17,495 bases of DNA from a virus: the UHGV virus genome UHGV-0117107. One strand, 5' to 3'. Positions 12,762-16,125 of the stretch are shown here, one piece after another. The translations under genes and the position numbers were made by a program. The notes below the pieces were generated by a model. It ran no database searches and was not told where the DNA came from. It was given only the letters and a program-made list of their open reading frames with translations. Numbering within the stretch: position 1 is the first letter of the stretch; the number at the start of each line of letters is the position of its first letter.

Positions 12762-13334
12762 TTAACGACCATAACGAGCATTGTTCAATATTCTTGACAC
12801 ATAGGTTCGTCCAGTCTTTTTGTATGCTTCTTGAGATTCGAGCAACATAGCATCTGCCTTATCAGATAATCTTGAAGCATCTTCGAACATTTTATTATAC
12901 TCCTTAGCATCTGCTGTTTTGTTCTGTGCAGAAGCTATAAATCTTGAAACTGCGTTTTTACCAAGTTTCTTGCGCTGCTCTTTAACCTGATTCCACTTTG
13001 CATCAGCAACATCACTAGCTTTTGATGCTGCATCAACCTTTTTAGAATAATCTTTTACTGCTGATTTTTTGGCATCTACTTTCGCTTTCTTTATGTCGGC
13101 TTTTGCTTCTCTTAAAGAAGCCTTAGCTGCATCTCTTTGGATCTTATTACCTTTTCGAATAGCTCCAATACCGTTCAACTGACCAGAATTCCTAGCTGCT
13201 TTACGAGCTTCTAATCCATCAGCTCTGGCTTTCTTAGAGGCTTGTCTAAAGGTCGGCTGATCGCTTCTCCTTCTAACTCCCCACTTCATGCCTTTTACAC
13301 CGTAGTGCATTAATTTGTCATCATAGTATCCCAT
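12762..13334 (-). CDS. Paralog D of tandem family (190 aa): conserved N-terminal HYGVKGMKWGVRR motif, then a highly basic Lys/Ala-rich helical region; function unknown
   Basis: ATG preceded by GAGGTGAAAATTCAAA. Shares the N-terminal motif with the three upstream genes; rest of the protein is low-complexity and basic (AKADIKKAKVDAKKSAVKDYSKKVDAASKASD...). Confidence 0.7.
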   Translation of the reverse strand: MGYYDDKLMHYGVKGMKWGVRRRSDQPTFRQASKKARADGLEARKAARNSGQLNGIGAIRKGNKIQRDAAKASLREAKADIKKAKVDAKKSAVKDYSKKVDAASKASDVADAKWNQVKEQRKKLGKNAVSRFIASAQNKTADAKEYNKMFEDASRLSDKADAMLLESQEAYKKTGRTYVSRILNNARYGR

Positions 13335-13363
13335 TTTGAATTTTCACCTCTTATCTCAAATAG

Positions 13364-14500
13364 TTATGTGTTCCCGGACAGCATCCCAATGATTTCTCTA
13401 TCCGATAGTTTCGTGTTCGGATGTTGTTTACGATAATTATTTATCGCTTTTGTGTTAAAAGCATATGATACTCCTACTGGAACAGTTGCTCCCAAAGCAT
13501 ACGTAGCTCCCTTTTTTGAGCCAGTTATTATTTTGTTGACGTAGTCTTCAGCTTTCTGTATTTTCTTAGCTTGATCAAGATTCTTTGAAATCTCATCAAC
13601 CGTTAATTCTCTAAAATTAGTTACAGAAATCTTTCCTTTCGCATCAAATACTATGAGAGGATTTTTTGTCTTGTAGTCATTAAACTTCATATCGTTAATG
13701 TCTTGAATAGCATTATATCCTTTTGATTTCATAGCACTATAAAATGTTTTGGATGAATATGAATCATGATTCCCAGCTAATTTAGAATTGAAATTTTCAT
13801 ACAGTTTTGATAACTCACTATCTGTATACGTTCCGAATTTAGCAAATCTTATAGGCTTTTCATTCGAACTTATAGAGCTTGGTAGATTATGTACATACTC
13901 TGCGAACTTTTTATCATTCTTATAAAGATCTTTGAATACTTTCTTCGCATTATTCTTAGAAGCAACTTTGACATCATCTTTAACTAATAAAGACATCACA
14001 TATGCTTTTCCAGTCTGTTGATATCGTTCTCTACCAAGTTTACCTGCATATTTTATGTTATCGGTTTTCTTGTATGAAGCGAAGAAATTATCGTATAACT
14101 TTCCTCCGGTATCTTTCATCTCTACTCGTTGCAACAACTTTCCAGACTTTATAGTTTTATCACAGTAATCTTTAATGTACTTATTTGTTGCATATGCAGC
14201 TATCGAAGCAACTGTGATACCGGCTGTTATGGCTATGATTTTCTCAGTTTTGATACGTCTATCAGCCGCCATCTTAGCCTGTTTAGGACTCATCCCTTTG
14301 CTAATATACTTAGATTCAATCCTCGATCTGTGACTCGATCTATTTGTGCTCTTATCGGATTCGTTTTGGTATTTATTCTTTCCAGCATTAGTGAGAGAAC
14401 CGTCTTTATTTTGGTAACGTCTTATTCCCCATTTCATGCCTTTTACACCGTAATGGTAGAGTTCATCTGTAGAAGTTATTCTTGAAATTGCATACTCCAT
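13364..14500 (-). CDS. Paralog C of tandem family (378 aa): conserved N-terminal motif, one predicted transmembrane helix, C-terminal domain homologous to paralog B; function unknown
   Basis: ATG preceded by AGAGGTAGGTGAGTCAAA. N-terminus TDELYHYGVKGMKWGIRRYQNKDGSLT; hydrophobic stretch IIAITAGITVASIAAYATNKYI (about residues 87-105); regions alignable with B, e.g. FYSAMKSKGYNAIQDIND...NPLIVFD versus FYSELKKKGYNALLDYND...RPMIVFD. Confidence 0.7.
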   Translation of the reverse strand: MEYAISRITSTDELYHYGVKGMKWGIRRYQNKDGSLTNAGKNKYQNESDKSTNRSSHRSRIESKYISKGMSPKQAKMAADRRIKTEKIIAITAGITVASIAAYATNKYIKDYCDKTIKSGKLLQRVEMKDTGGKLYDNFFASYKKTDNIKYAGKLGRERYQQTGKAYVMSLLVKDDVKVASKNNAKKVFKDLYKNDKKFAEYVHNLPSSISSNEKPIRFAKFGTYTDSELSKLYENFNSKLAGNHDSYSSKTFYSAMKSKGYNAIQDINDMKFNDYKTKNPLIVFDAKGKISVTNFRELTVDEISKNLDQAKKIQKAEDYVNKIITGSKKGATYALGATVPVGVSYAFNTKAINNYRKQHPNTKLSDREIIGMLSGNT

Positions 14501-14517
14501 TTTGACTCACCTACCTC

Positions 14518-15576
14518 TTAACTCAAATACTTATCAAGTTTACGGTTCACATAAGAATCGCACTCCGACACACTCTTCGTTCCGAGCTTAGATACGAAAC
14601 CAACTGTATTAGCTCCGATTTCCTTAACGATTCTTTCTGAATTGTATTTTCGATACAGCTTGTCTACAATTTTAGGATTCGCTTCGGTTACAGACTGAAG
14701 TTTCACCGAATCTGTATCAAACACAATCATAGGTCTTTTCGCATGATAACTTGAATACTCCTTATCGTTATAGTCAAGTAAAGCATTATAACCTTTCTTC
14801 TTTAACTCTGAGTAGAAACGATTTTGTGCAGCTATCTCTTGTTGATTATGGTTTACAAGGGATAGATTCAGAGCCTTATAGATAGCCACCTTTTCAGAAT
14901 TTCTAAGTTTACTTGGATCTTTCTCCAAAGCATTTTGAGCTTGTTTAAATAGAACCTGTTGAGTAGGTCGCCGCATCTTCTCTTTAGAGTCAGCTATCGA
15001 AGCCTCTACATTCTTCTTAAACTCTGGCTCTTTCAATAAGTTTGCGGTTATGTAGCCAGCGTTCTCATCTGACGGAACTTTCAACTTCTTCACAGTTTCC
15101 AGTTTCAACTGATAAACCTTCATATTATTGCTTTTATCTCTTAGAGATTTTGCAACGTTGAAATCTTCCTCACTGCCGGTTGCCTCAGCCTGTTTCTCAG
15201 CACGTCTTGCATCCGAAGCAGCTCTACTCGTAAGATTCTTACCAAATAATCCGAGATACTTATCCATGTCTTTCTTTTTATATGTAGCGTAGAATGCGAA
15301 ATTCTCGAATTCTTTTGAAGTCTGGATTCGAGCGAATGTAGTACCTTTTCTTAAATATGTATCAACGTACTGCTTACCTGTGACTTGAGTTTTGACAGTG
15401 TTTTTTAATTCAGAAACTTTCATACTCATTAACGTAGTCTTTTTCTGTGTGATATGAGTATCTGAAGAATTCTGATATCGTTTCTTACCAGATGGTGTCA
15501 ATGTTCCGTCAGCATACTGATATCTCCTAACACCCCACTTTTGACCTTTAACGCCGTGATGATAAAGTTCTTCCAT
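14518..15576 (-). CDS. Paralog B of tandem family (352 aa): conserved N-terminal motif, full-length homolog of paralog C without the transmembrane insert; function unknown
   Basis: ATG 3 nt after the stop of paralog A (translational coupling). N-terminus MEELYHHGVKGQKWGVRRYQYADGTLT; internal blocks FAFYATYKKKDMDKYLGLFG and GYNALLDYND...PMIVFD shared with C. Confidence 0.7.
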   Translation of the reverse strand: MEELYHHGVKGQKWGVRRYQYADGTLTPSGKKRYQNSSDTHITQKKTTLMSMKVSELKNTVKTQVTGKQYVDTYLRKGTTFARIQTSKEFENFAFYATYKKKDMDKYLGLFGKNLTSRAASDARRAEKQAEATGSEEDFNVAKSLRDKSNNMKVYQLKLETVKKLKVPSDENAGYITANLLKEPEFKKNVEASIADSKEKMRRPTQQVLFKQAQNALEKDPSKLRNSEKVAIYKALNLSLVNHNQQEIAAQNRFYSELKKKGYNALLDYNDKEYSSYHAKRPMIVFDTDSVKLQSVTEANPKIVDKLYRKYNSERIVKEIGANTVGFVSKLGTKSVSECDSYVNRKLDKYLS

Positions 15577-15579
15577 AAC

Positions 15580-16125
15580 TTACTTACCACTTAGCGCTTT
15601 GATGGCTAAAGCAATGCTTAATGCCGACCCGGTTACTGCTAAAACATCACCGGTGGTTTCTAGCATTCTACTAGCATACTCGCGTCCTTTCGTGGTTTTT
15701 TGAGGAGCAAACATATCATTATATTGTTTCTCCAAAAGAGCTCTATTAATCTGATCACGCATTTCTTTATCGGTCATGTTGCTTAAGTCCATCTTTTGTT
15801 TCGGATTATTTCTGATAGACTTATCGGTCATGGTCTTTATATTACGGCTCAGTCCAGCAGTAGCATCGGTCAAAGATTTGGTTCTTTCCAAGTCTTCTTT
15901 AACATATCGTCTAGCATCTGCTATGTTGTCAGTTCGACCGTTCTTTTTAGACTGCTTATAATAAGTACCAGTAGACTCATCATACTTATTAAATTCTTTT
16001 TCTCTAGAGTCTCTTTCATATCTCTTCTGACCTTTTTCAGTAAGAGTACCATCCTTGTTCTGGTATCTTCTTACTCCCCATTTCATGCCTTTAATTCCAT
16101 GATGATAGAGTTCATTATTGTCCAT
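15580..16125 (-). CDS. Paralog A of tandem family (181 aa): conserved N-terminal motif, basic middle region, C-terminal hydrophobic helix; function unknown
   Basis: ATG preceded by AAAGGAGGTAATTCAAA. N-terminus MDNNELYHHGIKGMKWGVRRYQNKDGTLT; C-terminus GDVLAVTGSALSIALAIKALSGK is hydrophobic (possible membrane anchor or amphipathic helix). Confidence 0.7.
   Translation of the reverse strand: MDNNELYHHGIKGMKWGVRRYQNKDGTLTEKGQKRYERDSREKEFNKYDESTGTYYKQSKKNGRTDNIADARRYVKEDLERTKSLTDATAGLSRNIKTMTDKSIRNNPKQKMDLSNMTDKEMRDQINRALLEKQYNDMFAPQKTTKGREYASRMLETTGDVLAVTGSALSIALAIKALSGK

Follow-up and report, generated by a model that had tools for sequence, protein, structure and literature searches.

Several phages load proteins into the head by means of short peptides. 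In phage T4, the capsid-targeting sequence is a short N-terminal peptide found on the internal proteins and on the Alt ADP-ribosyltransferase, which are loaded into the head and injected. It is cleaved by the gp21 protease. The Dar packaging signals of phage P1 are comparable head-loading peptides. Temperate phages also encode MuF (SPP1 gp7-like) polymorphic toxins, in which a folded domain of about 250 residues precedes variable C-terminal toxin or enzyme domains (Zhang et al. 2012, PMC3482391; Jamet et al. 2017, PMC5576092). Pre-toxin motifs such as VENN in CdiA and PT-TG (PMC3482391) are short conserved sequences at the border between constant and variable regions, where cassettes are exchanged and displaced toxin-immunity remnants persist downstream.

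Here we describe a short peptide shared by four genes (A, B, C and D) in a 17,495-nucleotide stretch of the virus genome UHGV-0117107 (the window) and by many genes of related phages. Like the MuF toxins, the tagged genes lie beside the portal and terminase genes, combine a constant N-terminal part with variable C-terminal toxin or enzyme domains, draw on an overlapping repertoire (Ntox50, Tox-PL1, ADP-ribosyltransferases) and are in some cases followed by small candidate immunity ORFs; head-borne cargo is proposed for both systems. Unlike MuF, the constant part measures only 15–30 residues, the genes number 1–8 per genome in two slots rather than one after the portal, and some versions of the tag are fused to the portal. 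The four window proteins contain no MuF domain (no Pfam match to PF04233, PF06152 or their relatives at E<=1), and many tagged cargos, including all four in the window, have no adjacent immunity candidate. Cassette exchange at a short conserved border, with orphan toxin-immunity remnants downstream in relatives, recalls the pre-toxin motifs. The carrier is, however, a phage head module instead of a secretion system, the tag is mostly at the extreme N-terminus and the sequences are unrelated. The tag shares with the T4 and P1 signals its position as a short N-terminal peptide on several otherwise unrelated proteins, and would share with them a role in head loading; two of the cargos, like Alt, have a predicted ADP-ribosyltransferase-like fold. 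It differs from these signals in having no sequence similarity to them and in belonging to different hosts and capsid lineages.

Four tagged genes upstream of the large terminase

An ORF check of the window confirmed genes A–D, which are encoded on the minus strand, as are all features described below. They follow one another upstream of the large terminase gene (10985..12718; Pfam TerL_nuclease and TerL_ATPase, and synteny), and the succession A-B-C-D-TerL has gaps of 3–43 nt. Each gene contains a block encoding the motif (E)LYH(H/Y)G-x-KG(M/Q)KWG-x-R, which corresponds to Pfam DUF7211 (PF23847), a family of unknown function with a 25-position model and a gathering score of 27 bits. All four proteins reach this score. 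A literature search for DUF7211 or for the motif string found nothing relevant. In the AlphaFold2 model the tag region has a pLDDT below 50; the lack of a confident fold is what a peptide that folds upon binding a partner would be expected to show.

Gene A (15580-16125, 181 aa) carries the block at 16069..16104 (encoding HHGIKGMKWGVR; 41.7 bits), followed by a cargo with a hydrophobic segment at residues 160-180 that belongs to phrog_32444, of unknown function. In close relatives, the tagged genes that follow the connector gene begin with its counterpart. Gene B (14518-15576, 352 aa) has the most divergent block (15526..15561, encoding HHGVKGQKWGVR with Q for M), which at 27.1 bits is barely over the cutoff; its tag covers residues 2-20 and its globular cargo (phrog_7502) is of a family common to gene C. 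In gene C (13364-14500, 378 aa; block 14420..14455, encoding HYGVKGMKWGIR, 40.4 bits), the tag is followed by a hydrophobic helix and a globular domain at residues 115-300; none of its 2666 homologues is named. Gene D (12762-13334, 190 aa; block 13272..13307, encoding HYGVKGMKWGVR, 42.8 bits) combines the tag with a basic, Lys/Ala-rich helical cargo. Genes C and D also match phrog_35934, annotated "virion structural protein", weakly.

The cargos of B and C have a predicted ADP-ribosyltransferase-like fold, which in gene C is formed by the 115-300 domain. The catalytic residues H-Y-E, R-S-E or RES could not be assigned among the invariant columns of the family, and the B and C sequences had no match among PDB chains. 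A Foldseek search against the PDB gave only marginal hits, to MbcT (E=3.7e-3) and to a cyanophage A4 pre-ejectosome protein (E=3e-3, TM 0.25); the latter is not relied on. Against BFVD, only uncharacterised actinophage homologues were found.

The tagged genes are bordered by conserved head genes. The connector gene (16115..16480; Phage_connect_2, E=2e-42), whose synteny is kept in all related loci, forms the left border of a first cargo slot, and the terminase gene separates this slot from a second one that ends at the portal gene (8749..10020; Pfam Phage_portal). In the window, the second slot holds an untagged collagen-repeat protein (10035..10631; Pfam Collagen), while relatives have tagged genes there. 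The prohead protease (S78) and the major capsid protein are encoded by one ORF (6654..8399; Pfam Peptidase_S78 and Phage_capsid). No small ORF is present between A, B, C, D and TerL, and these genes are therefore unlike toxin-immunity pairs: the window contains neither an immunity gene directly downstream of A–D nor an orphan toxin-immunity remnant.

The tag is specific to one head-module lineage

Tagged genes are present in more than 200 related loci. The gene order of the lineage is small terminase-like, HNH-like, connector, [tagged], TerL, [tagged], portal, protease-MCP, and its members include Lactococcus phage 1706, Faecalibacterium phage FP_oengus and Rhodococcus phage ReqiPepy6. In all 32 loci that were mapped gene by gene, tagged genes occupy the connector-terminase and terminase-portal slots that flank TerL; one of the 32 has an additional tagged gene between the portal and capsid genes. 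The association also emerges when the motif alone is used as a query. A DNA scan of IMG/VR returned 119 loci, 108 of which contain a window-type TerL, portal, MCP or connector gene in the retrieved DNA, and 94 of the 106 true motif matches in GTDB genomes have such a head-module gene within 8 kb. The tag is thus specific to one siphophage head-module lineage.

The cargos are diverse. A set of 350 falls into at least 114 sequence clusters, all behind the same motif, and different cargos are found behind identical leaders in relatives. Named Pfam domains among them are Ntox50, the glutamine deamidase Gln_amidase (Tox-PL1), ADPrib_exo_Tox, ATLF, GNAT and topoisomerase IB. The tagged proteins consist of a constant N-terminal part and highly variable C-terminal modules, as in polymorphic toxin systems.

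Fusions of portal, tag and toxin

Some relatives encode the portal, the tag and a toxin in frame as a single gene, with candidate immunity genes and an orphan toxin remnant behind it. Such portal-tag fusions are recurrent and involve at least five different C-terminal modules; a portal-tag-GNAT fusion forms one ORF in locus L146, and two of the fusion proteins, P0146 and P0147, occur on 32 and 61 contigs, respectively. The portal-fused C-terminal module and the small ORF behind it swap together, and candidate immunity ORFs are confined to these portal-fused relatives. In locus L267, an orphan 3' remnant of an Ntox50 gene, interrupted by an in-frame stop, adjoins a 96%-identical 70-aa ORF. The AlphaFold2 model of the portal-tag-Ntox50 fusion P0146 has a mean pLDDT of 53 and a disordered extension, and is too poor to show docking.

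A probable role in head loading

We consider it probable that DUF7211 is a selected peptide tag that loads effectors into the phage head and at the same time marks the point of cassette exchange. As a recognition peptide, the tag would direct its cargo to a place beside the portal inside the procapsid, and the virion would later carry the cargo along and deliver it to a new host together with the DNA. The T4 capsid-targeting sequence works in this manner, as the MuF/gp7 toxins are proposed to. Genes A–D would be four such cargo genes. The prohead protease may in addition use the tag as a processing site.

The tag could instead serve mainly as a recognition and cleavage site of the prohead protease that frees the cargo from its leader or from the portal, with targeting achieved by something else. 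A toxin fused to the portal would presumably need to be cut free to leave the capsid, and a docking tag on the portal itself would be redundant, so that it may have been kept there for processing or as a recombination handle. Of 249 ORFs, 29 carry the motif at an internal position (1706 gp07 and ReqiPepy6 gp013 are examples), the S78 protease-MCP ORF co-occurs with the tag across the lineage, and pre-toxin domains have been discussed as processing sites (PMC3482391). In gene B, however, the motif begins at residue 3, leaving nothing to remove, and no conserved pair of residues of the kind usual at cleavage sites was found. Cleavage as the main function is unlikely on this evidence. It is compatible with head loading, and the two are not mutually exclusive.

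It is still less probable that the tagged proteins stay out of the virion and that the motif directs them to the host membrane, the envelope or export, where they could act in superinfection exclusion, in the timing of lysis or as toxins released at lysis. Such a destination would fit the TM-like hydrophobic segments of 72 of the 363 tagged ORFs, A and C among them, and the classic secreted-toxin domains of some cargos. It fits poorly with the position of the tagged genes, always within the packaging and head operon, with the recurrent fusion of the tag to the portal C-terminus and with the motif itself, which is neither hydrophobic nor like a signal peptide. Two proteins with DUF7211, 1706 gp07 ("structural protein") and ReqiPepy6 gp019 ("virion structural protein"), are moreover labelled as structural in the annotations of their GenBank depositors. 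The linkage to the head module, the portal fusions and these labels are also the indirect evidence for a capsid-targeting peptide.

The DNA block reflects selection on the peptide

The original prediction described near-identical DNA segments at the 5' ends of the four genes. A repeat search of the window found one four-copy direct-repeat family (D2, 36 nt, 72–89% identity to the reference copy), whose copies are exactly the four motif blocks located above, and a second family of 109 nt (61–73% identity) in genes A, B and C. The shared strings that had been quoted are correct: AAAGGCATGAAATGGGGA is common to A and C, and TACGGTGTAAAAGGCATGAA(A/G)TGGGGA to C and D. An 18-mer of the block has three exact copies in the window, where 0.04 are expected (none of 200 shuffles had three). 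The term near-identical holds for stretches of 18–26 nt only; pairwise identity is 65–81% over 16 codons, and over 25 codons it is 63–80% for pairs among A, B and C and 45–55% for any pair with D.

The DNA similarity had further been expected to exceed what the amino-acid conservation requires, which it does not: same-codon counts fit codon usage. At residues identical between A and C, the same codon is used in 8 of 11 cases versus 4.7 expected from the codon usage of the window (P=0.04 over 16 codons and 0.16 over 25, uncorrected for six pairs), and between C and D in 7 of 11 versus 4.4 (P=0.09). The remaining four pairs are at or below expectation, and no excess of synonymous-site identity among the four copies is significant after allowing for six pairs. 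In 494 unique motif copies from relatives, synonymous sites are free to vary. Since identical codons are no commoner than codon usage predicts, the similarity of the four blocks points to selection on the encoded peptide and not to recent duplication, gene conversion or other recent copying of DNA.

It is accordingly very improbable that A–D are recent tandem duplicates or gene-converted copies whose repeats drive ongoing unequal crossing-over in this genome. The genes are adjacent and in the same orientation, and the A-C and C-D codon counts are slightly raised, but no pair is significant when all six are allowed for. Outside the motif, D is unrelated to A–C, and the similarity of A to B and C ends with the extended motif. 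Exact repeats in the window do not exceed 18–20 nt, no chimeric gene is visible there and nothing indicates rearrangement among the four copies. The codon test largely refutes recent duplication or gene conversion as an explanation of the block similarity. A DNA- or RNA-level signal (recombination hotspot, packaging site or translation control) with an incidental peptide can practically be dismissed, since, although the blocks lie at gene 5' ends with similar RBS and start contexts (AGG-G..TTCAAAATGG; repeat families D4 and D8), it is contradicted by the free third codon positions of the 494 copies (Gly third-base entropy of 1.6–1.75 bits, all six Arg codons in use) and by conservation of the motif at the protein level between phages of Actinobacteria and Bacillota with very different GC content.

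Cargo exchange at the tag

Close relatives exchange cargo modules, and the junctions fall within the tag codons, directly behind them or at gene starts. Six or more independent comparisons of close relatives show 92–99% identity up to the last motif codons and no alignable sequence afterwards; twelve junctions were inspected base by base. One case involves the window itself. Compared with its closest relative (L019), gene D is about 97% identical up to the last motif codons, after which the identity collapses and L019 has an unrelated cargo. Alignment segments (HSPs) have their 3' ends at the motif in 48 of 550 cases, while the motif makes up 1.1% of the sequence. Among unique breakpoints within tagged genes, 16 of 64 are at the motif versus 8.2% expected (P=4e-5); a larger class, 26 of 64, is at gene starts. 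Loci L007 and L008, which are 98.5% identical, differ by a motif-to-motif insertion in L008 and have the same cargo family in different slots.

These observations bear out the recombinant junctions that the original prediction had anticipated, here inside or at the end of the block, as well as the variation in copy number among relatives (0–8 tagged genes per locus). Its picture of a constant 5' cassette with shuffled C-terminal modules holds as an evolutionary description, with the block kept by selection on the peptide. Of the proposal that the repeats are substrates for recombination, exchange at the tag is seen in relatives, while none is evident among the four window copies. Synonymous-site similarity and copy number, the two properties on which the prediction was to stand or fall, gave opposite answers.

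How the tag becomes a junction can be proposed from the motif. All cassettes would keep GGN-ATG-AAR-TGG-GGN and with it 15–36 nt of microhomology imposed by the peptide, which, together with selection for in-frame tagged products, would make the tag the usual crossover point. The exact repeats of 18–20 nt in the window are short for RecA-type recombination. The breakpoints at the tag could also stem from selection on the products of illegitimate recombination, rather than from homology-driven crossover.

Implications

A broader proposal can be made, more tentatively: DUF7211 may be an unrecognised, portable "load into head and inject" tag of a widespread gut and soil siphophage lineage, and its universal splice point for effector cassettes. 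Any protein with the tag, toxins that have an immunity gene of their own among them, would then dock at the portal, be packaged and be delivered alongside the DNA; the lineage's YonO-like RNA polymerase is perhaps another such protein. The polymerase of relatives aligns to the tag with 8–9 bits through the LxHYGxK part only, a score reached by 3–6 of 20000 shuffles, and DUF7211 is absent from its 25 best Pfam families. That it carries the tag is a weakly supported lead.

If the tag is a head-loading signal, it would explain a large unnamed class of phage genes and constitute a second, MuF-independent route by which phages carry polymorphic effectors and toxins. This route would be found in abundant human-gut phages and prophages of Faecalibacterium, Lachnospiraceae and Blautia, as well as actinophages. 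A peptide of 15–30 residues could then serve to bring proteins of choice into these virions, as a natural cargo-delivery system of Gram-positive phages that lends itself to engineering. At the DNA level, the tag would be a clean natural example of peptide-imposed microhomology bounding mosaic modules, and bears on the old problem of how phages swap modules while keeping the reading frame.

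Gene organization of the late region

The window covers the late, morphogenesis part of a tailed-phage genome, and all its genes lie on the minus strand. In transcription order, it encodes a small protein at the small-terminase position (16904-17248), an HNH-like protein (16498-16941) and a connector protein (16115-16480; Pfam Phage_connect_2, E=2e-42). These are followed by four adjacent genes, A (15580-16125), B (14518-15576), C (13364-14500) and D (12762-13334), which carry the repeated 5' block, and by the large terminase, TerL (10985-12718). The peptide encoded by the block is referred to as the tag, and the remainder of each tagged protein as its cargo. 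An 81-aa ORF and a gene for a collagen-triple-helix repeat protein (10035-10631) separate TerL from the portal (8749-10020). The collagen-repeat gene, which has no tag, fills the TerL-portal slot where most relatives have tagged genes; the same gene is present in L019, the closest relative of the window. The prohead protease and the major capsid protein (MCP) are fused in a single ORF (6654-8399), with Peptidase_S78 at residues 17-94, Phage_capsid at residues 358-575 and an acidic region between them, an arrangement kept across the lineage.

Tail genes, the endolysin and the tape measure lie downstream. The tape measure gene (1-2430, more than 810 open codons) leaves the left end of the window, and the long plus-strand ORFs over it (e.g. 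382-933) are antisense artefacts. The endolysin (2819-4237; GH25, CHAP and two CW_7 repeats) falls within the tail module, flanked by tail-assembly-chaperone-like genes and by the gene before the tape measure. Since the related locus L264 has an Amidase_2 gene at the matching position, the tail operon seems to contain a slot in which lysins can be swapped. In GenBank, the nearest record is MT835495, an unannotated human-gut phage scaffold whose TerL has 76.6% nucleotide identity to that of the window.

The repeated block encodes a peptide under selection

The original prediction described near-identical DNA segments at the 5' ends of the four genes. The repetition itself is confirmed: a repeat search of the window found one 36-nt direct-repeat family with four copies (13272-13307, 14420-14455, 15526-15561 and 16069-16104; 72-89% identity to the reference copy), and a second, 109-nt family (61-73%) joins A, B and C. 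An 18-mer core occurs three times, compared to 0.04 expected by chance, and the strings listed as shared between the gene starts are exact in the sequence. Near-identity holds for stretches of 18-26 nt only; over 25 codons the identity is 63-80% among A, B and C, and about 50% for D. A, C and D have a similar ribosome-binding/start context, AGGxG..TCAAAATGG (13331-13349, 14496-14512 and 16121-16140), so the 5' similarity reaches slightly upstream of the coding tag. A context of this kind is also found ahead of TerL in the relatives L007 and L008 (AAGGAGCTAATTCAAAATGG).

Each of the four N-termini matches DUF7211 (Pfam PF23847), a family of unknown function spanning 25 residues, with the core motif (E)LYH(H/Y)G(I/V)KG(M/Q)KWG(V/I)R. 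We counted identical codons at residues shared between paralogues and compared the counts with the expectation from codon usage in the window. Overall, identical codons are not more common than codon usage predicts. A and C share 8 of 11 codons against 4.7 expected (P=0.04 over 16 codons, 0.16 over 25 codons), C and D give P=0.09, and the other four pairs are at or under expectation. In 494 distinct tag copies from relatives, the third-base entropy of the three Gly codons is 1.6-1.75 bits, and Arg is encoded by all six codons. The agreement of the codon counts with expectation and the free synonymous variation indicate that the peptide is the conserved entity, and DNA similarity beyond the amino-acid conservation is not seen. 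The same two results rule out a recent duplication of A-D or gene conversion among them as the source of the similarity, as well as a role of the block as a DNA-level signal. As Met and Trp codons are non-degenerate, GGN-ATG-AAR-TGG-GGN constitutes an unavoidable DNA microhomology.

The tag is a signature of one head-module lineage

We assembled 32 loci, consisting of 30 IMG/VR loci found with protein A, MT835495 and the Rhodococcus phage ReqiPepy6. Their common gene order is small terminase-like, HNH, connector, tagged genes, TerL, tagged genes, portal and protease-MCP, with 1 to 8 tagged genes per locus, in line with the expectation that copy number would vary among relatives. MT835495 carries A and B homologues, and no C or D homologue, ahead of TerL; a D-like tagged gene occupies its TerL-portal slot.

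As a cargo-independent sample, IMG/VR was scanned with a degenerate DNA pattern for KGMKWGVR alone, which returned at least 119 loci. Among those listed, the retrieved DNA of 108 includes at least one gene of the window type for TerL, portal, MCP or connector. One tagged ORF is present in 53 of these listed loci, two in 29, three in 14, four in 12, five in 4, six in 1, seven in 2 and eight in 1, and the motif starts in the first 40 residues of 220 of their 249 ORFs. A second scan with the same pattern covered GTDB with a single genome for each species and gave 109 matches, 106 of which are true tagged ORFs; the same head module is located within 8 kb of 94 of the 106. Together, the two scans show that the tag marks one head-module lineage, which corresponds to the 1706 / FP_oengus / actinophage supercluster (bioRxiv 10.1101/842583). 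The GTDB matches are mostly from gut Bacillota and include complete Faecalibacterium prausnitzii and Hungatella hathewayi chromosomes, indicating that temperate members exist.

Cargo exchange has its junctions at the tag

L019 and the window share ~97% identity across the end of C, the intergenic region, the D start and the tag codons. Identity is lost right after ...TGGGGAGTTAGrAG and regained at the TerL ribosome-binding site, so the replacement of the D cargo begins precisely behind the tag. We compared 31 loci all-against-all by blastn and counted internal HSP 3' ends at ≥88% identity; 48 of 550 ends lie within -36 to +12 nt of a motif end, a zone that makes up 1.1% of the sequence. Restricting the set to tagged genes and merging identical contexts left 64 breakpoints. 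The motif zone holds 16 of them against 8.2% expected (P=4e-5, indicative only, as contexts are not fully independent). A further 26 are at the gene start, indicating whole-gene swaps.

At least six independent exchange cases were found at the motif: L007 vs L008, L010 vs L012/L014 vs L009/L013 (three alternative cargos behind one leader), L016 vs L018, L019 vs the window, L025 vs L026/27/29 vs L030/31/32 (three alternatives) and L026 vs L029. In two cases, L003 vs L005/L006 and L009 vs L010-15, the direction is opposite and identity starts inside the motif. Base by base, identity at the junctions is 92-99% over leader and motif and ~30% beyond. The unit of exchange can be seen in L008, which is 98.5% identical to L007 and carries an extra cargo (L008:3240-4770 vs L007:3330-4010). 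The added cargo is flanked by the third gene's motif on one side and, on the other, by a repeated copy of the block that comprises the B 3' end, intergenic region, leader and motif; the inserted segment extends from motif to motif. The repeated copy is visibly more diverged (about 85% identical by eye). The inserted cargo family is the one that occupies the TerL-portal slot in L007.

The proposal that the block serves as a recombination substrate for shuffling C-terminal modules is therefore half right: recombinant junctions do lie inside it and it marks a boundary between modules, but selection on the peptide is what preserves it. Crossovers would exploit the microhomology that the peptide imposes. 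Nothing in the window indicates intragenomic shuffling.

Cargos are diverse and can be fused to the portal

The 350 cargos fall into 114 clusters, 88 of them singletons. In a Pfam scan of one representative per cluster, DUF7211 was found in 112 of 114. GNAT acetyltransferase is present in three representatives, and further cargo domains are Ntox50, topoisomerase IB, an anthrax-lethal-factor-like peptidase, Tox-PL1 glutamine deamidase and an ADP-ribosyltransferase exoenzyme domain. The peptide is thus lineage-specific, multi-copy and attached to very diverse cargos. In ReqiPepy6 gp013 (L002:1487-3082), a 2H/LigT-like phosphoesterase domain precedes an internal tag at residues 340-356, and phage 1706 gp07 (L033:2501-3889) has two internal copies; such proteins may be multi-cargo or processed.

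In L146 (6619-8406, minus strand), a single ORF contains a portal (47-371), a tag (414-430) and GNAT (469-557). A search with this protein showed that portal-tag fusions recur (P0121, P0131, P0146, P0147, P0155, P0159 and P0197), on dozens of contigs that include long bacterial ones. The recurring layout is a portal that stays constant, a linker of acidic residues, EHLAHHGV(K/E)GQKWGV(R/K/Q)NGPPYP(I/L) and a variable C-terminal module, for which at least five unrelated types occur (GNAT, Ntox50 and three or more unnamed ones). The Ntox50 fusion P0146, named 'phage portal protein [Eubacterium sp.]' at NCBI, has 36 member sequences on 32 contigs, and P0147 is found on 61 contigs, some of 0.2-1 Mb. 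The tag can thus join a toxin to the portal.

Three such loci that are close relatives, L264, L267 and L268, are 91-95% identical over portal and tag until about 57 nt beyond NGPPYP, after which the C-terminal module and a small ORF overlapping its stop codon are replaced together. Downstream, L267 (6028-6394) retains a decayed Ntox50 3' remnant with an in-frame stop, adjoined by an intact 70-aa ORF with 96% identity to the small ORF behind Ntox50 in L264 (8626-8906). This 70-aa ORF is a candidate immunity gene kept after displacement of the cassette. A toxin exchanged with its small ORF, and a displaced orphan, is the arrangement of polymorphic toxin loci (PMC3482391). None of the window genes A-D has an adjacent immunity gene, so we do not count them among toxin-immunity pairs; as tagged cargo genes, they belong to the same system as those of the relatives.

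Relation to known systems and proposed head loading

The closest known system is that of the MuF (SPP1 gp7-like) phage-head polymorphic toxins, with a common genomic neighbourhood, variable toxin C-termini and proposed in-head delivery (PMC3482391, PMC5576092). In contrast to the MuF family, no MuF domain is present in the four window proteins, and what stays constant in the tagged system is a short peptide, which occurs in up to eight copies and two slots and is sometimes fused to the portal. By analogy, the tag may function like the capsid-targeting sequence of phage T4, which has the Alt ADP-ribosyltransferase among its cargos, or like pre-toxin junction motifs such as VENN in CdiA. Our literature search on DUF7211 and the motif found no mention of either, and an exchangeable set of DUF7211-tagged cargos around TerL and portal, with portal-fused toxin cassettes, appears undescribed.

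Three lines of evidence point to a location of the cargos in the virion. In the genomes, the tag is tied exclusively to the head module; the portal C-terminus, expected from general portal structure to face the capsid interior, serves as a fusion partner; and the tagged proteins 1706 gp07 and ReqiPepy6 gp019 were annotated by their depositors as 'structural protein' and 'virion structural protein', respectively.

The lineage also has a large YonO/crAss-like RNA polymerase (L001:2426-5503; L154:192-2966, which is FP_oengus gp55; L072; L136). A DFDGD motif was recognised by eye in its translation, and the DxDGD catalytic-loop signature is described for the FP_oengus protein (bioRxiv 10.1101/842583). 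Its conserved N-terminus, LEHYGT(K/P)RHSGRYP(W/Y)GSG(D/E)NPYQ, weakly resembles the tag and the portal-fused variant ...HHGVKGQKWGVRNGPPYP..GSG, with 8-9 bits, a score attained by 3-6 of 20000 shuffles. The resemblance is a possible hint that virions carry the polymerase as well.

We infer head loading as the functional core of the system. The tag would be a recognition peptide that places the cargo in the procapsid near the portal, and the cargo would then be delivered along with the DNA. As a portal-fused toxin would need to be cut free, the tag may also be a site for the prohead protease.
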